From Escherichia coli O127:H6 str. E2348/69 (GTDB lineage Bacteria > Pseudomonadota > Gammaproteobacteria > Enterobacterales > Enterobacteriaceae): a DNA stretch of 64,000 nucleotides. This document shows, piece after piece, positions 50,617 to 60,073 of the stretch. A program made the position numbers and the translations under genes. Position 1 is the first letter of the stretch, and the number at the start of each line of letters is the position of its first letter. Location of the stretch: NCBI RefSeq assembly GCF_000026545.1, contig NC_011601.1; one strand, given 5' to 3'. The notes under the pieces were generated by a model. It saw only the letters and a list, made by a program, of their open reading frames with translations, ran no database searches and was not told where the DNA came from.

Positions 50617-52283
50617 TGCTGCGGTGCTCCTGCTGCATTAGCGATAGCAGTTAATGCGCTCGGGTCGCTGGTCTGCGTTTCGCTGAGAGTCTTGGCCCCC
50701 TGCGCTGCCGCCTGACCCATAGCCATTGCCTGTGCCGCCTGAGCCTGTTTAGCTCGCTCTTCACGAATACCCTGTACCTGCTCCTGCGGAACGATGACGG
50801 TTGGCGATACGCCTGACATTTCAGAGAACGCGTCGATAGCCTGATCCACATCAAGCTTGTCGAGCGCTTCAGGTTTGAACTGCGCCAGTTGCCCGATAAA
50901 TCCAACTGTCTGCGACAGGCTGGTGAGGCCGATAGATTTCTGAGCCTGAGCCATCACAGAGATGTACTCGATACGCAGCGGCATACCCTGAAGAACGTCA
51001 GGAGGTTCGGGCAACATGTTCTTGCGGGCCATGATTGAGAACACGCGATCGATAAGCGGGTTAAGCGCTTCGTCATTCAGGCGCTCAAGCACCGGGCCAA
51101 GCATCAGCAGTTTCTCTTCCTTCATCTCGATCACCGCTTCCACCGGCATAGATCGGGTGTTGATTTTTTGCAGCATCATGAAGAGGTCAACGAAGTAGGC
51201 GCTGTTGATGGTCTGCCTAGTGTCCTGAATGTCAGCCAGCAGGTCGGCGGTATTCGGGTTTACCAGGTATGCAGGTTTGAAACCATCCTGACCGGTCAAC
51301 ACGTCGAGATATGTCACATCGCCAGGCAACAGGGAAACACGCTGATTCTTGAGCGATGTTGGGGCAACCATCGGCGGGTTAGTGGCTTTATCGATCAGCT
51401 GAGCTTTGCGCTTCTGCTCAACCTGAAGTGCTTTAACCTGACCGAGTGCCAGCATACCAGGGCAAGATGAGGCGTAAACGTCTTCGCCATTCACTTCCCA
51501 GCGCGGCGCCAGAATAGGGAATTCATCAAATCCGGATTCACGCAGCAGCTTGTCGGAGTCGCCGCCAGACTCGAAATAGACAGAGCGGTAAGGCTTGTTC
51601 TTGCTGTCCATCTTCCCGCTGTCGCGGTTGACGTTAGGTGTGATGCAGTGGTTAACCTTCACCCACGTTTCATACGTGCCGTTTTCCCACATGCCTTTTA
51701 CGGATGTGCTGACGTTATCCAGACCGAATTCCTGCACCATCTGGCGCACGGTCATGGAGAACTGGCGAATGCAGGTGTCTACGCTACCGCGCGGACTGTT
51801 AGCCAGGTAGTAACTGCCAATAGGGAAAGGCATTGTGCGGATCACGTCCTGGTCATCTTCCAGAACAGCCATAGCGCCGGTGCCGAAAGTACCCAGACTT
51901 GCGTACATAACAGGCAGTGACTGATACAAATTCGATTTGTTGAACACTTCGTTCATGCGGCGCTGCACGACTTCCAGCCAGATTTTCACCGGGCCATAGT
52001 CCATCATGTCAGGGTCAGGCGTTGCCAGTTTGAACCACGGTCGTGCCGGACTGGTGATGCCTGACATCATGCCGCTGGACAGAATTCGCTGAGCCATTGA
52101 GCCAGTGGGATCAACAATCTTGGTGTTACGGCGATCATCACGGTTTACATCAGATGTCAGAAAGCGGGAGCCACGCGGATTGATGAAGTCACTAAGATCA
52201 CGCCAATGCGATTCGAACGATGTGCGCTCATTCTTCAGCTGTGCGAGCTGCTTCAGCAGGCGCTCTTTTTCGGTTTCCGCCAT
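50613..52283 (-). CDS. Portal protein
   Basis: 556-aa ORF, first large gene of the head operon. Confidence 0.7.
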   Translation of the reverse strand: MAETEKERLLKQLAQLKNERTSFESHWRDLSDFINPRGSRFLTSDVNRDDRRNTKIVDPTGSMAQRILSSGMMSGITSPARPWFKLATPDPDMMDYGPVKIWLEVVQRRMNEVFNKSNLYQSLPVMYASLGTFGTGAMAVLEDDQDVIRTMPFPIGSYYLANSPRGSVDTCIRQFSMTVRQMVQEFGLDNVSTSVKGMWENGTYETWVKVNHCITPNVNRDSGKMDSKNKPYRSVYFESGGDSDKLLRESGFDEFPILAPRWEVNGEDVYASSCPGMLALGQVKALQVEQKRKAQLIDKATNPPMVAPTSLKNQRVSLLPGDVTYLDVLTGQDGFKPAYLVNPNTADLLADIQDTRQTINSAYFVDLFMMLQKINTRSMPVEAVIEMKEEKLLMLGPVLERLNDEALNPLIDRVFSIMARKNMLPEPPDVLQGMPLRIEYISVMAQAQKSIGLTSLSQTVGFIGQLAQFKPEALDKLDVDQAIDAFSEMSGVSPTVIVPQEQVQGIREERAKQAQAAQAMAMGQAAAQGAKTLSETQTSDPSALTAIANAAGAPQQ

Positions 52284-52297
52284 CTCTGCCTACTCCG

Positions 52298-52504
52298 TTA
52301 CTGACCAAGCAGCGTTTTACCGCTGGTGTTTGCGGTTGAAGTGTCACCCTGCGCACCAGTCAGCAGAGTAGAGCTGCGCCCTGCTGCTGCGCGGCGGCGG
52401 CGCTCTTCGTCGTCACGAGAACTGACAACTGCTGCATCCTGCTCCTGTGGCGCAGCCTGTACTTCTGGCGCTGCTGGCACTGATGGCTTGCTGCCGATAC
52501 ACAT
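52298..52504 (-). CDS. Small basic protein upstream of portal
   Basis: 68-aa ORF ending 15 bp before the portal start. Confidence 0.4.
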   Translation of the reverse strand: MCIGSKPSVPAAPEVQAAPQEQDAAVVSSRDDEERRRRAAAGRSSTLLTGAQGDTSTANTSGKTLLGQ

Positions 52505-52593
52505 AGCAATAGCTCCGTACGCAATTAAATTATTACCAATTTAACCACATATGATTTATTTAGCGTAGGATATTGACACTTATAACATCAGAT

Positions 52594-52610
52594 ATTACCT
52601 TTTAGGTAAT
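52594..52610. promoter_or_regulatory. Operator-type palindrome ATTACC-N5-GGTAAT (site a)
   Basis: ATTACCTTTTAGGTAAT with TTGACA 16 bp upstream; lies between the head operon and the plus-strand island. Confidence 0.5.
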
Positions 52611-53056
52611 TGGTTCGTGTGTTGAATTGATGAATTGCGGAGGTGGTTATGTAACCGCTTGTGCAGTAGCCCGGAGTACCGCAGCAATAAATTGGGCTTA
52701 AAAGTAAAGGCGGTGGATAAGCGGAGCATCATCTCCGCACATAACTAAAAGCGCGCTTCAGTGAATGACCTTTGAGCCTGGTCGTTAAATCCAAACGGTG
52801 GAGTGCGCTTTCAGGTGTGTAGCAGTACGGCATATGGCACATGTGCCGCAGCGGTCCGGATGGGTTCCCTTGATGCTACTTCCCCAGCCGGGTAGCCGGA
52901 ATGTGCAAGCCAGTGTTAGGTAAGCACGGACAGACGATTCACCATCGTGGCGATACGGTGTGACACCTCGGAAGAGACGAGGATGCAACGATGATAGCAT
53001 TGGGGTGACCGGTTAATCCCATGACGATAACCGATACAGGCGCAGTGCTCTCTTCG

Positions 53057-53169
53057 TTGTGGTTAGCTCAGATAGGTTAGAGCTCCATCCATGCTTGCCA
53101 TTGCTGCATGGGCGGGGAATGGGTTCCGAAAGGATCGCCGCGCAGGTTCGAATCCTGCACCACAACCCA
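53057..53169 (+). ncRNA. tRNA-like element with non-canonical 58-nt middle region
   Basis: 7-bp acceptor stem (TTGTGGT/ACCACAA), D-arm TAGCTCAGATAGGTTAGAGC, T-arm GCAGGTTCGAATCCTGC, discriminator and encoded CCA; no standard anticodon arm. Confidence 0.5.
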
Positions 53170-53338
53170 ATCACGCCTTAGGACCGTGATGAAGCGCCCA
53201 TAAGAACAATGCTGTGTAGCCTTTGGCGGTGGCAGTTTCCCTTGATGCTGACCACCGTCACTTTTACACCAGAACGCCATTGCGATGACGTTGCGCTGTA
53301 AACCCGTAAGCCATGGAAGGCACCCTTGCTTCCATTTC

Positions 53339-53363
53339 GCCCGGTTCGTCCGGGCATTTTTTT
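53339..53363 (+). terminator. Intrinsic terminator downstream of the tRNA-like element
   Basis: GCCCGG-TTCGT-CCGGGC hairpin followed by ATTTTTTT. Confidence 0.65.
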
Positions 53364-53375
53364 AAGGTGATTAGA

Positions 53376-53807
53376 ATGAGTAAAGACCTGTTCGACATGA
53401 AGCGCCTTCCGGTTGACCGGGTTGCTGCGAGAGTTGTTGGTAAGGGCGTTGATTGGACGCCAAATAAAGTTATTCAAACTGGTGACAGCGATCTTCCGTT
53501 GCCAGTATTTCCTGCATATAACATTAAAAACCCGCAACAACGACGCGAAGTGCAAGCAATGATCGGAAGAAAGAGCGGGAGATTGACAATAATTGGTCTC
53601 GCGGTCACACAGGGAGCAAAAAATAAAGGGGCTCGCTATGTTGCTCGTTGTGTTTGCGGGATTTATACGTATCGCAGAGCAAAAAATTTCAAGAATAATT
53701 CTGATGATTTTGACGGATGCGAGCGCTGCAGAGAACTGTTGTTTCTCAAAAGGGAAGAAGTTAAACGCAGAACGGGAAAATGGGTTGACTGGAAAGAGCT
53801 GATGTAA
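53376..53807 (+). CDS. Cys-rich protein of unknown function (moron gene)
   Basis: ATG at 53376 with AAGGTGA ribosome-binding site; 143 aa containing CVCG...CERC; opposite strand to the flanking terminase and portal genes. Confidence 0.55.
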   Translation: MSKDLFDMKRLPVDRVAARVVGKGVDWTPNKVIQTGDSDLPLPVFPAYNIKNPQQRREVQAMIGRKSGRLTIIGLAVTQGAKNKGARYVARCVCGIYTYRRAKNFKNNSDDFDGCERCRELLFLKREEVKRRTGKWVDWKELM

Positions 53808-53810
53808 GAC

Positions 53811-53824
53811 TGTGACACGTCACA
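53811..53824. repeat. Palindrome TGTGACACGTCACA (copy 2)
   Basis: GTGAC-AC-GTCAC dyad directly 5' of the terminator at 53828-53852. Confidence 0.5.
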
Positions 53825-53827
53825 ACT

Positions 53828-53852
53828 AGCCCGCCGATGCGCGGGCTTTTTC
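53828..53852 (+). terminator. Intrinsic terminator after the Cys-rich ORF
   Basis: AGCCCGC-CGATGC-GCGGGCT hairpin followed by TTTTT. Confidence 0.6.
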
Positions 53853-55332
53853 ATGCATAGGGATCGTACTCTGTGAGAGCCTTGCCCTGTTGGCTCTGTT
53901 GCTGCCCATAGTTAAACTGTTTTTTGGTGACCGGCGCGGCATATGTCAGCACGTAGGCGTCGGCATCGTTCGGGGATCTGCCAAGCAACTCTTTGACTTC
54001 TTCCTTGTCCTGCAAAATCTTCCTGCTGTCCTTCAGCCTGACCTTGTACTCCGGCGCACTCAGCTCATCGGCAAGGTTCTGGCTATCCAGTTGCGCCCCA
54101 AGCTTCAGTGCGTCGCGGGCTGATTTGTACATCTCCCCGCGCTTATTGCCCATCTCGGGATCCGCGGTACCGCTTCCGAACTGAATCAGCGTCCAGTTTC
54201 GCCCCCAGTTATCGCCAACTGATTTAAGCCCGGTCCCGTACCCGTAATCGATAAACACAGCATCGGCCTGGTACTGGTCCTCGAAGTCGGCAATTATTTT
54301 GGCAAACAATACGTCGTCAGTGGTGCGTTGCCACTCCCCGAGTTTCTTACAGTGCAGTCCCTGCCGAAGATAGATAACCGCCGGGTCTTTACCCTGGTGA
54401 GACGGGTCGACGCCAAGAACTACAGCAGCGTGCTGAACCTGTGCCGGAGTAATAACCCTGCCAACAGCTGGCTGAGTCAGGCCAGACGGAATGAACTGGT
54501 TTTCAGACGCATCAGGGAAGATCCCGCGCACGCGAACCTTCACGAAGTCGCTGTCTTCGCCGTAGTCGTCCACCCACTTTTGCAGTTGCTGCTTGTTGGT
54601 GCCTTCCACGGTGCGGCTGTCAATCTGCGCGCACTTCCAGCGGTGTTTGTACTTGCGGAAACATTCACGGAAACGCCCGGTGTTACGCGTCGGGTTACCG
54701 AACGCCACCCAGATGATTTCGGTGTCTTCGTCCGTCAGCGCCCCTTCAGCTACCTCCCACACCAGATCGGCAATGTTGGATGCTTCGTCGAATACCACGA
54801 TGATGCGCTTGCGCTCGTTGTGCAGCCCTGCGAACGCCTCGGTGTTGTGTTCAGACCATGGGATTGCGTCAGCGCGCCAGCGTTTATCGTGACCGGGATC
54901 GTTGCTGTACATCGCTGTGGCGGTGCAGGTGAACCACTCTTTCGTAATAGCCAGGTTCGACCATTTGATGATTTCCGGCCATGTCTTGGTACGCAACTGA
55001 TTGTCGGTGTTGGCGGTCACCACCACCTTGCAGTCCTCGCAGGTGGACATGCCCCAGTTAATCAGCATCGAGATGAAAGCAGATTTGCCGATACCATGGC
55101 CGGATGCGCGCGCCAGCATCAAAGGCTGGTGACGCGTCGCTGGGTTCTGGAGGTGATCGCGTATCTCGCGGAAGGCGTCAGCCTGCCACTTTCTGGGACC
55201 TGTGGCGTGCGCCAGCTCTGTGCCATCCTCTCCCCACGGAAACGCGTACAGCGCATAGCCCAGCGGGTCATACGTGAACGAGGCGATATCCTCAACGAGC
55301 TGCTCTTCCGGCGACATGGCTTCGGCTGTCAT
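53851..55332 (-). CDS. Terminase large subunit
   Basis: 493-aa ORF with ATPase-like and nuclease-like regions, downstream of the small-subunit gene. Confidence 0.8.
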   Translation of the reverse strand: MTAEAMSPEEQLVEDIASFTYDPLGYALYAFPWGEDGTELAHATGPRKWQADAFREIRDHLQNPATRHQPLMLARASGHGIGKSAFISMLINWGMSTCEDCKVVVTANTDNQLRTKTWPEIIKWSNLAITKEWFTCTATAMYSNDPGHDKRWRADAIPWSEHNTEAFAGLHNERKRIIVVFDEASNIADLVWEVAEGALTDEDTEIIWVAFGNPTRNTGRFRECFRKYKHRWKCAQIDSRTVEGTNKQQLQKWVDDYGEDSDFVKVRVRGIFPDASENQFIPSGLTQPAVGRVITPAQVQHAAVVLGVDPSHQGKDPAVIYLRQGLHCKKLGEWQRTTDDVLFAKIIADFEDQYQADAVFIDYGYGTGLKSVGDNWGRNWTLIQFGSGTADPEMGNKRGEMYKSARDALKLGAQLDSQNLADELSAPEYKVRLKDSRKILQDKEEVKELLGRSPNDADAYVLTYAAPVTKKQFNYGQQQSQQGKALTEYDPYA

Positions 55333-55922
55333 TCTTCACCACCAGCCCGCTCTTTCACGCGACGGCGGGCCTTAGCCATGCGGTCGGCAATGGTGACGGT
55401 GCCGGAAACTTCCAGGCGCTCTTTGAACGCATTGACGTCGACGTGCTTACCAATCAGCTCGAGGTTCTTCACCTTGTCAGGCCATTTGATTTTCTTGAGG
55501 ATGGTCTCGATTGATGTCTCATCCATGTTCATGATGGTAGAGGACAGGTCGAAACCACTCAGTGTGGTGCGCCATATCTTCGGCCACTCGCGGATAGGCT
55601 TCAGGGTGCCATCATCGTTCAGGATGTCGATCACATCCATCTGGTCGATTTCCACCAGGCGAAGTAGCACGTAATCAGCACTGACGCGCAAACGCTTGTT
55701 GCGTTCCTCCATCAGCTCGGCGATCCGTTTCTGGATGCGCTCATCACGCATCATGACACTGGCTTTAACCGCTGCCGTATTAGGCGAGAACCCTGCGTTA
55801 ATCGCCGCCTGCGTCTGATTCTCAGGGCATTTGGTATATTCCTGCGCATAAGCCTCCTGCATCGCTGTTAGGGGCTTGTACTGAGTTGATTTTCGTTTTG
55901 GTGCTTTTGGTTCTGCGGGCAT
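55329..55922 (-). CDS. Terminase small subunit
   Basis: ORF 55329..55997; start placed at MPAEPKAPKRK (GGTGG ribosome-binding site). Confidence 0.65.
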   Translation of the reverse strand: MPAEPKAPKRKSTQYKPLTAMQEAYAQEYTKCPENQTQAAINAGFSPNTAAVKASVMMRDERIQKRIAELMEERNKRLRVSADYVLLRLVEIDQMDVIDILNDDGTLKPIREWPKIWRTTLSGFDLSSTIMNMDETSIETILKKIKWPDKVKNLELIGKHVDVNAFKERLEVSGTVTIADRMAKARRRVKERAGGEE

Positions 55923-55941
55923 TGTTACCACCGAAGTAATA

Positions 55942-55958
55942 ATTACCGTTTTGGTAAT
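55942..55958. promoter_or_regulatory. Operator-type palindrome ATTACC-N5-GGTAAT (site b)
   Basis: ATTACCGTTTTGGTAAT about 20 bp upstream of the terminase small-subunit start. Confidence 0.5.
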
Positions 55959-55963
55959 AGTAA

Positions 55964-55994
55964 CACGCAAAACAAAGCCGCCATAGTCGGCGGC
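55964..55994 (-). terminator. Intrinsic terminator at the end of the early operon
   Basis: GCCGCC-ATAGTC-GGCGGC hairpin followed on the minus strand by TTTGTTTTG. Confidence 0.55.
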
Positions 55995-56017
55995 CATTGC
56001 AATTTATTGTCGATATC

Positions 56018-56029
56018 GTGACATGTCAC
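56018..56029. repeat. Palindrome GTGACATGTCAC (copy 3)
   Basis: Perfect 12-bp palindrome overlapping the stop of the 112-aa gene, 5' of the terminator at 55964-55994. Confidence 0.5.
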
Positions 56030-56364
56030 ACTGATAATTTAGTTTCATGCCAGCCACGAGTTACCCAACATGCCGAATCACCATCGCACGGACACGACTT
56101 AACTGGTAATACATCGCCGCATTTTACGCAGCGGTTAGCACTGATTGACTTGATACGAACACGAACGCGGGCATTATCCTGACGGATAAGCAACGCGATG
56201 TACTCGCTCATATCATACGGCGCACGACCAGGGCGACGGGCGGCGCAGTTACGCGCCAGCATTTCCATTTCCTGCTCGTCGAGTTGCAATTCCATCTTGC
56301 GGTTACCGGCTTCAGCCAGACGGGCACGCTGCGCGGCTTTGCGTTCTGCTGTGGATTTAGCCAC
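56026..56364 (-). CDS. Cys-rich small protein (possible regulator), last early gene
   Basis: 112-aa ORF with GTG start and C-terminal CxxC...CxC motif. Confidence 0.5.
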   Translation of the reverse strand: MAKSTAERKAAQRARLAEAGNRKMELQLDEQEMEMLARNCAARRPGRAPYDMSEYIALLIRQDNARVRVRIKSISANRCVKCGDVLPVKSCPCDGDSACWVTRGWHETKLSV

Positions 56365-56479
56365 GGATAGCGCTCCATGCCAGATTAATTAATGATTCCC
56401 AGGCGATGTAAACCCTGATTCCTGCAGCCACGCCAAACCCGATTATCATGGAGTAAAGCAGAGCGTCGCACTTGGACAT
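56357..56479 (-). CDS. Small hydrophobic protein (40 aa)
   Basis: ATG overlaps the upstream stop (TGATG) and its stop overlaps the downstream GTG start; GGAGGTG ribosome-binding site; below the ORF-track cutoff. Confidence 0.5.
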   Translation of the reverse strand: MSKCDALLYSMIIGFGVAAGIRVYIAWESLINLAWSAIRG

Positions 56480-56901
56480 CACTTCACCTCCTGCTGTGGT
56501 GCTGCTGCTAAATGCTCGACACCTTTAGCCCAAATAGCTTTGATGGTCGTCCATGTGACAGGAACGGTGATTTCAATTCTTCCGCTGCCGTCGCAGGTTT
56601 CGCAATCATCATCACCAAAACACTCTGGGCAGTTTATAAATTTCGTTTCTGAAAACTCACCGGACAACACACCCTTTGCGCCGTTCTCAGCGGTTAGCTT
56701 CTTCGGCACTAGTACGTAACCATCCGGAGATACCGGAGAGTTGCCAGCCTGAAGCATGGCTGCGCGGAGTTGTTGTAGTTCGGCCAGCGCTAGCATTACA
56801 TCATCAATGACAGGCAACTCCATTTCATACAATTCAAGAGAATCCCTAGCCACACGGATAAGTACGCTCAGACGCTCGTCTGTTAGGTTGTTATTGGTCA
56901 T
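56479..56901 (-). CDS. Hypothetical early protein with CxxC...CxxC motif
   Basis: 140-aa ORF with overlapping start and stop codons to its neighbours. Confidence 0.5.
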   Translation of the reverse strand: MTNNNLTDERLSVLIRVARDSLELYEMELPVIDDVMLALAELQQLRAAMLQAGNSPVSPDGYVLVPKKLTAENGAKGVLSGEFSETKFINCPECFGDDDCETCDGSGRIEITVPVTWTTIKAIWAKGVEHLAAAPQQEVK

Positions 56902-57194
56902 TTTTCATCTCCTTTAAGCATGGCGGCGCGGCAGTCACATTCGATGAGTATCGGCTCTCCCCATGGCTGAACGCCGCCACTATCAGCCATTCCGGTGTCG
57001 TTACATTTAGGACAAGGTACTGGCTCCGCACTAAACGATGCAATCACTCCATCAATCACCTTCACAGCATCAGCCATTGCGTAGCCGAGATTGCCTCCGT
57101 CACTTTGTGCTGCTGCTTTGCTGAGTATTTCGCTTATCTGGTGCAGGCGATCGAGTGATACAGGACCGTTCGCCGGGTGGTTGTTAGTTGTCAT
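56898..57194 (-). CDS. Hypothetical early protein, Cys-rich
   Basis: 98-aa ORF. Confidence 0.5.
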   Translation of the reverse strand: MTTNNHPANGPVSLDRLHQISEILSKAAAQSDGGNLGYAMADAVKVIDGVIASFSAEPVPCPKCNDTGMADSGGVQPWGEPILIECDCRAAMLKGDEK

Positions 57195-59266: not shown

Positions 59267-60073
59267 TCACAGGAAATCCTCCCACGCCTCTGGACTGTTC
59301 CAGTGCGGTACGTTGTTTTCAGGTGAGGTCAGTTTGTTCTGTCTGCTGATCTGCAGACGTCTGGCAAGTTTTTGCTCCCATTGCGCATGGTGGAAAGCCT
59401 TACCCTCGGCCATCCAGTAAACCCTGAACTCTGCAAGCTCCTGCGGTGTTGGCTGGCAATCCAGGTTAATACCCTGCAGAGATGACACCCGGAGAAAATC
59501 ATCCGATGGTGACCAGAGCTCATGCATGACAAATTTCCCGAATTGCCCAAGTCCACCAGGAGGGACAAAGTTGTTAATTACGGCGTTGTTGGCGTCAGGT
59601 TCAGGCGGTACTAAACCACCAGTTTTATCGCCCCTCTCCTTCTCTTGGTTATATGACTGGTTAACTGATAGGTTCTGCATCCCGTTTTTGGGATCATTCA
59701 ACTTCCCGTTTTTGGGATCATTCAACTTCCCGTTTTTGGGTATACTCCCAATTTTGGTAACATTACCGTTTTTGGGTATACTCCCAATTTTGGTAACATT
59801 ACCGTTTTTGGGTATGTTTAAAGAGAAAACCCGGACCCTTCTTGTTGCCCCTTTTCTTTCTCCTGTATCTGAAATTAACCCCATACCGATGAGCGAAATC
59901 AGCCCTGCCTGAACCGTTTTTTTATTCAGGCTTGTGTCGGTAACCAGGCGTTCGATGCTTGGATAACACAGGTTATATTCATCGGCTCGATCAGCCATCG
60001 AGAGCAGGATGAGTTTCAGTGATGAGCTGCCCGGATTTGTTTTCCATGCCCACTCTGTTGCGTGTCTGCTCAT
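59267..60073 (-). CDS. Replication initiator O-like, with iterons inside the gene
   Basis: 268-aa ORF whose central region is encoded by tandem repeats (IPKNGNVTKIGS, KLNDPKNG); located upstream of the P-like gene. Confidence 0.65.
   Translation of the reverse strand: MSRHATEWAWKTNPGSSSLKLILLSMADRADEYNLCYPSIERLVTDTSLNKKTVQAGLISLIGMGLISDTGERKGATRRVRVFSLNIPKNGNVTKIGSIPKNGNVTKIGSIPKNGKLNDPKNGKLNDPKNGMQNLSVNQSYNQEKERGDKTGGLVPPEPDANNAVINNFVPPGGLGQFGKFVMHELWSPSDDFLRVSSLQGINLDCQPTPQELAEFRVYWMAEGKAFHHAQWEQKLARRLQISRQNKLTSPENNVPHWNSPEAWEDFL
59681..59812. repeat. Iteron array (candidate origin of replication)
   Basis: Five copies of CCGTTTTTGGG spaced 24, 24, 36 and 36 bp; the 36-bp units each contain GGTAACATTACC. 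Confidence 0.6.

Follow-up and report, generated by a model that had tools for sequence, protein, structure and literature searches.

A conserved 40-codon gene for a predicted membrane peptide in the early operon of an epsilon15-like prophage of Escherichia coli E2348/69

Is a hydrophobic open reading frame (ORF) of only 40 codons, wedged between two overlapping neighbours in a prophage, a gene at all, and, if so, what might its product do? This question is raised by a stretch of 64,000 nucleotides from Escherichia coli O127:H6 str. E2348/69 (contig NC_011601.1; hereafter, the window), where such an ORF occupies positions 56357..56479 on the minus strand, with its ATG at 56479..56477 and its TAA at 56359..56357. 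The product read from this minus-strand ORF, MSKCDALLYSMIIGFGVAAGIRVYIAWESLINLAWSAIRG, matches exactly the 40-residue sequence quoted in an initial annotation of the window, which had described the gene as unlisted and as translationally coupled inside an early operon. Comparison with related sequences leaves us almost certain that the ORF is a real, translated gene.

The evidence that carries this answer is comparative. In IMG/VR, all 68 loci with a full-length or near-full-length match have an intact ORF of 40-45 codons. Relative to the common E. coli allele, to which it is 82% identical at the nucleotide level, the window allele shows 15.5 synonymous and 6.5 nonsynonymous differences, i.e. 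proportions of 0.55 synonymous (pS) and 0.07 nonsynonymous (pN) differences and a ratio of nonsynonymous to synonymous divergence (dN/dS) of ~0.08 (Fisher p = 7.6e-8). No synonymous excess was seen in the two shifted frames used as controls. The variable columns of the alignment are distributed over the first, second and third codon positions as 20/10/32, and the other five frames fare poorly: four contain stops in every allele and the +2 frame contains stops in 12 of 24. The most distant support comes from the homologue of Punavirus (P1-like plasmid prophages), MSKVNVLIFSAIVGFGFTAGVQIYIAWEKIINYAWSCFIK, which is 50-53% identical in protein and 57% in DNA, with a GC content of 34% versus 51%. 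This copy is free-standing: it is preceded by a 48-nucleotide spacer and an in-frame upstream stop, and does not overlap its neighbours. Since the P1-like copies stand alone on different codons, an overlapping signal or RNA is excluded as the source of the conservation. A search of Rfam retrieved no family at E <= 1 on either strand of 55800-57000, a result that a novel, uncatalogued small RNA (sRNA) could escape. Loss of the reading frame in homologous regions had been named in the initial annotation as an outcome that would speak against the gene; the frame is kept in related prophages and phages.

These data bear directly on the most sceptical explanation, namely, that the ORF is a chance open frame in GC-balanced DNA. 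It is indeed very short, and in many alleles the frame is open upstream of the ATG, which has led to inconsistent calls of 55-70 residues in some databases. However, the conservation statistics, the independent P1-like branch and the conserved Shine-Dalgarno (SD) sequence effectively refute a spurious ORF, and we assign it a negligible probability. The same upstream-open frame led us to consider the peptide as a C-terminal extension of the upstream protein produced by frameshifting; this candidate was rejected because the P1-like copies are free-standing, with their in-frame stop and 48-nucleotide spacer, and because the SD is conserved.

How, then, might the gene be expressed? The strong ribosome-binding site reported initially is present: GGAGGTG lies at 56485..56491 (minus strand), within the last codons of the upstream gene, with a spacer of 7 nucleotides between GGAGG and the ATG. 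The TGA stop of the upstream gene (56479..56481, minus) shares its final base with the ATG of the peptide gene (TGATG), and this one-nucleotide overlap recurs in most loci. An in-frame GTG at 56482, one codon further upstream, serves as the alternative start in some annotations. At the other end, the junction GTGGCTAA (56357..56364, minus) contains the GTG start of the downstream gene (56364..56362) within the last codons and stop of the peptide gene, so that the two genes overlap by 8 nucleotides, and an SD-like GGAG stands ahead of this start at peptide codons 35-36. Both overlaps are thus as they were first described. Of the proposed translational coupling, it is the layout that we could verify, being what coupling would be expected to look like, whereas the coupling itself is deduced from this geometry. 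On the same geometric grounds, ribosomes would enter by de novo initiation at the strong GGAGG and/or by termination-reinitiation at TGATG, and would then move onward to the start of the downstream gene within GTGGCTAA. Such an arrangement implies that transcription of the early operon would always bring with it synthesis of the peptide, together with the products of the adjacent genes.

It might be argued from here that the act of translation is all that matters, and that the ORF merely delivers ribosomes to the downstream start while the peptide itself is functionless. The 8-nucleotide overlap and the GGAG in codons 35-36 do place the initiation region of the partner within the ORF, and chimeric copies (see below) keep only the 3' half beside the downstream gene. 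Nevertheless, conservation at the amino acid level is strong (dN/dS ~0.08), the P1-like phages keep the protein motifs on different codons and in a non-overlapping arrangement, and pure coupling would not preserve a hydrophobic helix with invariant glycines. We consider this explanation very improbable.

Contrary to the first description, the gene is not unlisted. The exact coding sequence is annotated by RefSeq through the Prokaryotic Genome Annotation Pipeline (PGAP) as H4J01_RS25325, hypothetical protein WP_000030836.1, and several phage records carry it as well. A PGAP annotation of the gene was present at every locus that we opened. The identical protein, recorded as "MULTISPECIES: hypothetical protein [Enterobacteriaceae]", occurs on 60 contigs, while the commonest allele is found on at least 1,000 contigs. 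From the common E. coli allele, the window allele differs at 5 of 40 residues (88% identity). Among phages, the annotated members include Orf32 of phiv142-3 (QGF19637.1), WYA78225.1 of EC.W1-9, gp090 of the Salmonella phage SJ46 (YP_009293547.1) and a protein of vB_EcoM-813R1; homologues have also been annotated in assemblies of Citrobacter, Klebsiella and Salmonella, as well as in the plasmid prophages of the P1-like group. The peptide belongs to phrog_5525 (PHROGs v4, unknown function), whose hidden Markov model aligns over its entire length (E = 2.8e-28, 98.4 bits, residues 1-40 on positions 1-40 of 40). It is the same protein family as that of WP_000030836.1, and its Uetakevirus members share the position and the overlaps, with no difference in kind. 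Overall, the gene is already known as a sequence feature, a member of a catalogued but uncharacterised family in which no protein has a known function. In the literature, we found nothing on this gene: the papers on phiv142-3 treat orf6 and orf10, and the paper on ZX5 makes no mention of it.

The family is a narrow one, since an exhaustive profile search against 1.84 billion representative proteins yielded 18 hits, all of them the same family or fragments thereof. One further match, to 20 short stretches of a 2,840-residue protein, is probably a repeat or composition artefact. A word-indexed search produced 39 clusters, ~34 of them full-length, with 75-98% identity and from Escherichia, Citrobacter and Klebsiella. 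The family has three branches, plus outliers that the exhaustive profile search recovered. Among complete E. coli genomes, 163 of 5,426 carry the DNA of this ORF, each time as a single chromosomal copy.

Some prophages carry damaged copies of the gene. In the chimeric or frameshifted derivatives P0035-P0039 and P0047-P0051, the C-terminal half, beginning at about I21-R22 with IRVYI(A/T)WESLINLAWSAIRG, is attached to unrelated N-termini, or else the N-terminal half stands alone. Such mid-ORF chimeras point to recurrent recombination or deletion breakpoints and to decay in some lysogens. Loci L010 and L011 (E. coli Ecol_881 and isolate 648) belong to decaying prophages in which the DUF551 gene is truncated and the downstream gene is frameshifted, and the 40-codon ORF is intact; with a target of 123 nucleotides, its survival there may be due to chance.

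The placement in an early operon, as first suggested, is supported by synteny. The gene lies within a ~40-kb epsilon15-like (Uetakevirus-type) prophage of E2348/69, an enteropathogenic E. coli, between guaA and yfgI. Read along the minus strand and following RefSeq, the prophage starts with an integrase, a leftward early operon (RecT, a PD-(D/E)XK nuclease-like protein, PerC and others) and a helix-turn-helix repressor. The rightward operon, which begins beside this repressor, comprises a cro-like gene, a DnaT-like O protein, the replication protein P, a PDDEXK nuclease and small accessory genes, ending in an accessory array of the Ead/Ea22/DUF551 type that precedes the peptide gene. The latter is the penultimate gene of the operon, being followed by the last gene, a phrog_536 member (E = 1e-49) of 112 residues with a Cys-rich C-terminus (56026..56364, minus), a terminator and terS. 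The terminator-like hairpin, GGCCGCCGACTATGGCGGC followed by TTTGTTTT (55966..55995, minus), lies ~30 nucleotides past the stop of the phrog_536 gene and marks the end of the early-right operon; its fold has an energy of -24.4 kcal/mol (z = -2.8), and it is identical to an epsilon15 stem-loop annotated as a rho-independent terminator. Promoter-like sites in the region occur at chance level (8 found, 6.7 expected). Beyond the rightward operon come terS, terL, portal, capsid and tail genes, an O-antigen acyltransferase gene and the lysis cassette.

This order of genes is informative with regard to lysis. Being a small phage membrane protein, the peptide could be imagined as a holin, an antiholin or a spanin-like component. 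However, the prophage already has a full set of lysis genes, encoding two holins, a GH19 endolysin and a DUF2514 protein, and this cassette is separated from the peptide gene by ~26 kb, lying at the far end of the late region. The peptide gene itself belongs to the early operon, upstream of the terminator. It neither lies beside the endolysin gene nor bears a holin-family signature: with a single transmembrane (TM) segment in 40 residues, its best Pfam match is DUF2109 at E = 0.072, short of the cutoff, and its sole strong PHROG match is phrog_5525. A lysis-related role is therefore very unlikely.

What surrounds the gene elsewhere was compared in 81 loci, the downstream phrog_536 gene being detected by direct tblastn. 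In the window, the upstream gene encodes 140 residues (56479..56901, minus), with a C-terminal part resembling phrog_60/DUF551-type proteins; PGAP recognises only 56479..56766 as a partial pseudogene. Across the 81 loci, the upstream gene falls into at least 10 unrelated clusters, including DUF551, Eaa/Ea22 and dATP/dGTP pyrophosphohydrolase proteins. Despite this diversity, the last upstream codons, with caGGAGGtgaagtgATG, are kept, as is the start junction caGGAGGtgaagt(a/g)ATG in most homologous loci. The retention of SD-bearing codons beside unrelated upstream genes suggests that the peptide gene travels with its own SD. Downstream, phrog_536 follows in 66 of the 81 loci via the same (A/G)TGGCTAA overlap. 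Even a divergent branch, in which the peptide is 56-62% and the partner 60-69% identical, keeps this overlap; here, the upstream gene differs and terS of the window type is not detectable.

The two genes also occur apart. Fifteen loci have the peptide gene but no phrog_536, among them all P1-like phages, L007, L012 and L013: in L007, it stands beside genes for the theta subunit of DNA polymerase III and a DUF1367 protein, and in L012, upstream of DUF4224 and integrase genes in an early-left setting. In L012 and L075, the (A/G)TGGCTAA junction joins the peptide gene to downstream genes of unrelated families. Conversely, epsilon15, SPN1S and the enterotoxigenic E. coli H10407 possess phrog_536 and lack the peptide gene. 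In epsilon15, where the phrog_536 homologue is gp49, the slot is occupied by gp48 (NP_848256.1, 90 residues, L089 1235-1507), an unrelated protein that uses the same two junctions and is hydrophilic and coiled-coil-like, with a maximal Kyte-Doolittle mean over 19 residues of -0.24. In H10407 (L090, NC_017633.1, ~1856-2053), the slot contains an intact ORF of 65 codons within an unannotated RefSeq gap; its Cys-containing product, MDKCRGVLGFLFGHSYRHAITRGYPSAKLGEVKGSSSFIISLIDKTRPETFHGIYCKRCGKVING, has a homologue in the IMG/VR locus L075, and the ORF shows the same overlap junctions, so it is probably a missed small gene. Both occupants share the position between the DUF551-type gene and phrog_536, the SD-containing upstream junction and the ATGGCTAA downstream overlap of the peptide gene, but their sequences are unrelated to it, and neither is a membrane peptide. 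The junctions of the slot appear fixed, with caGGAGGtgaagt(a/g)-ATG/GTG upstream and (A/G)TGGCTAA downstream, and it is because of the shared junction that downstream genes of different families start with M-A-(K/N). Cassettes of the slot can also be stacked, as L075 has the peptide gene followed by the 65-residue ORF. Since phrog_536 and the peptide gene occur apart, and since unrelated genes are found in the same slot, the peptide gene is, on comparative grounds, not part of the core set but an accessory cassette that can be exchanged. Its conserved junctions illustrate how accessory cassettes may be swapped in the early operons of temperate phages.

Given the prevalence of the phrog_536 partner, it is tempting to suppose that the two genes form a functional module, in which the peptide would tether, sequester or time the phrog_536 protein and thereby affect the switch to late (terminase and structural) expression. 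The same 8-nucleotide overlap in 66 of 81 loci, even without a conserved upstream gene or terS of the window type, speaks in favour of this scenario, as does the co-variation of pairwise identities of the peptide and the phrog_536 protein (Spearman 0.85; Mantel 0 of 2,000). Yet such co-variation is expected from physical linkage alone, and some loci are discordant, with identities of 85% for the peptide and 92% for the partner in L073, and of 53% and 80%, respectively, in L081, which indicates recombination between the two genes. The separate occurrence of each gene described above counts against a module as well. Moreover, the "transcriptional regulator" label of the phrog_536 protein is itself putative: sequence and profile searches of the PDB were empty or returned noise, and the AlphaFold2 (AF2) model has a predicted local distance difference test score (pLDDT) of only 63. 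We regard the module as improbable. A bolder version, in which the peptide and phrog_536 would be the two components of a hitherto unrecognised switch, placed where early expression gives way to late expression in phages of the Uetakevirus type, appears more improbable still. There, a membrane peptide would control a putative late-gene regulator, and the recombination slot would let phages swap the "input" peptide; the evidence that could be cited for it (the linkage in 66 of 81 loci and the rho of 0.85) is equally explained by plain physical linkage.

We now turn to the product itself. The single probable TM helix mentioned in the initial annotation is predicted by our analysis too. The peptide has a grand average of hydropathy of 0.95, and its best 21-residue segment, residues 7-27, has a Wimley-White octanol dG of -6.6 kcal/mol and a Kyte-Doolittle mean of 1.6. 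The C-terminal residues 27-40 are amphipathic (hydrophobic moment 1.5). With the family alignment, AF2 models a single unbroken helix over residues 3-39 at a pLDDT of 93. With no more than 50 residues and one hydrophobic segment of bilayer length, the product fits the description of small single-pass inner-membrane proteins, as far as prediction goes, and, judging from these models, it is likely to be inserted in the membrane. Across all branches of the family, M1, K3, G14, F15, G16, G20 and W27 are invariant, a set that amounts to a mid-membrane GFGxxxG motif and an interfacial tryptophan; R22 is variable (R, H or Q), and E28 is not conserved. A conserved stripe along the helix (G16, G20, Y24, W27, I31, W35) was also considered and dropped, as there was no significant periodicity at 100 degrees.

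Putting these observations together, the explanation that seems to us the best overall, albeit a tentative one, is that of a genuine accessory gene of temperate enterobacterial phages, with coupled early expression, whose product is a membrane helix that packs on a partner or on itself. In such a scenario, the product would be a continuous helix of ~37 residues that spans the membrane at about residues 7-27 and carries an amphipathic tail at 27-40. G14-F15-G16-x3-G20, a small-residue face of the GxxxG type, and W27 might, at low confidence, permit tight helix-helix packing. The packing target could be the peptide itself or a larger inner-membrane protein of the host or the phage, the activity of which the peptide would modulate. 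Altered envelope physiology, or the exclusion of other phages, in early development would be a plausible outcome. As for the host-takeover or exclusion role put forward in the initial annotation, it is a generic expectation for peptides of this kind.

Several known systems make a partner-binding mechanism conceivable. AcrZ, a single-TM small protein, binds AcrB, a larger membrane protein. More generally, it is common for small proteins with one TM helix to attach to a larger membrane protein and modulate it, as MgrB does with PhoQ (PMC12648545). Like proteins of the MgrB-PhoQ type (PMC12648545), the peptide has no more than 50 residues, one TM helix and no plausible catalytic capacity, and its conserved small-residue motif would likewise be suited to helix-helix packing. 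It differs from them in that there is no sequence relationship, and in being phage-borne and encoded in an early phage operon, not in a host stress regulon. By this analogy, the action of the peptide as a modulator of a bound partner is possible, though we hold it with some doubt.

Certain points weigh against the explanation that we favour. Scans of Pfam, NCBIfam and PADLOC with the peptide and its P1-like homologue gave sub-threshold matches only (DUF2109 at E = 0.07 and CydH at E = 0.15), and neither these scans nor the profile search linked the peptide to any characterised protein. The peptide is dispensable for this type of phage, given that epsilon15 and SPN1S lack it and have other genes in the slot, and in some prophages the gene is truncated, frameshifted or chimeric, having been broken near codons 20-22. 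The periodicity of conservation at 100 degrees was matched by 3,622 of 5,000 shuffles, so a single extended interaction face is not demonstrated. The charges leave the topology ambiguous, with K3 (and D5) on the N side versus R22, E28 and R39 on the C side. Finally, GxxxG is equally compatible with a pore-forming or toxic oligomer.

The last point leads to the alternative of a membrane-perturbing peptide, a glycine-motif oligomer that would depolarise or permeabilise the inner membrane in the manner of a type I toxin or a pore-former, and would either aid host shut-off or serve as an addiction or abortive factor. Being small, with one TM helix and an amphipathic tail, the peptide has features typical of type I toxins, and its invariant GFGxxxG core is compatible with the packing of homo-oligomers. 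Some prophages are known to carry type I toxins (PMC12648545). Similarly to Hok, TisB, DinQ and Ldr, a group that is in part prophage-borne, the peptide is short, hydrophobic, alpha-helical and predicted to reside in the inner membrane. In contrast to them, it shows no homology and has no matched antisense RNA partner and no independent promoter or leader. Type I toxins are recognised by a cognate antisense or sRNA antitoxin and by tightly repressed independent translation; here, the gene is one cistron among several in an operon, has a strong SD, overlaps both neighbours and lacks a promoter and structured leader of its own, and Rfam contains no known antisense or sRNA element matching the region at E <= 1. 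There is likewise no fixed "antitoxin" neighbour in the P1-like phages, L007, L012 and L013, and no match to a toxin family in Pfam, NCBIfam or PADLOC. Such a peptide is, in our opinion, a rather unlikely explanation.

The peptide may also be compared with the membrane proteins of superinfection exclusion. HK97 gp15, P22 SieA and T4 Imm are bigger proteins or cross the membrane more than once, and it is typically the prophage that expresses them. The peptide is like them in being phage-encoded, non-essential, patchy in distribution and, by prediction, located in the inner membrane, but it has no homology to them and matched none of the PADLOC-DB defence models at E <= 1, and the same was true of its P1-like homologue.

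How much does the peptide matter? A very short ORF, of the kind easily lost to length cut-offs, proves to be a bona fide conserved phage gene. To a specialist, a conserved membrane peptide of 40 residues in the accessory region of a temperate phage is unsurprising. The DNA of the gene occurs in ~3% of complete E. coli genomes, and, apart from setting the annotation right, the finding is of little consequence. The peptide is nevertheless tractable, having 40 residues and a clear GFGxxxG/W27 core for mutagenesis, and, if its target is identified, it would represent one more small membrane protein by which phages manipulate the host envelope.

We would also like to comment on some other features of the window. 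The terminator hairpin described above lies inside the first codons of the terS ORF (55329..55997, minus), for which PGAP sets the start 6 nucleotides further upstream, and tblastn matches to terS in the related locus L081 start at residue 26. Both facts point to an internal start of terS near 55922. Probably, the true start is the ATG located there (MPAEPKAPK...), and the annotated N-terminus is likely over-extended.

Upstream of the peptide gene, the ORFs of 140 residues (coordinates above) and 98 residues (56898..57194, minus) are intact and overlap by ATGA. PGAP marks parts of both as partial pseudogenes ("missing N-terminus", "missing C-terminus"). To us, they resemble mosaics, in which pieces of DUF551/phrog_60-type and other accessory genes have been fused, more than simple pseudogenes.

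Between terL and the portal gene, RefSeq records a "pseudogenic tRNA-Gly" of 113 nucleotides at 53057-53169, and ARAGORN found no tRNA in 52200-53900. In the related phage phiv142-3, terL is followed by a tRNA-Arg(tct), and the element of the window may be a degraded phage tRNA.

Finally, the O-like replication gene (59267..60073, minus) encodes, at ~59700-59800, tandem peptide repeats, with NGNVTKIGSIPK and NGKLNDPK each present twice, and its DNA contains a repeated TTGGGTATACTCCCAA palindrome, the copies being 36 nucleotides apart. By analogy with lambda O, these look like iteron-type origin repeats located within the initiator gene.

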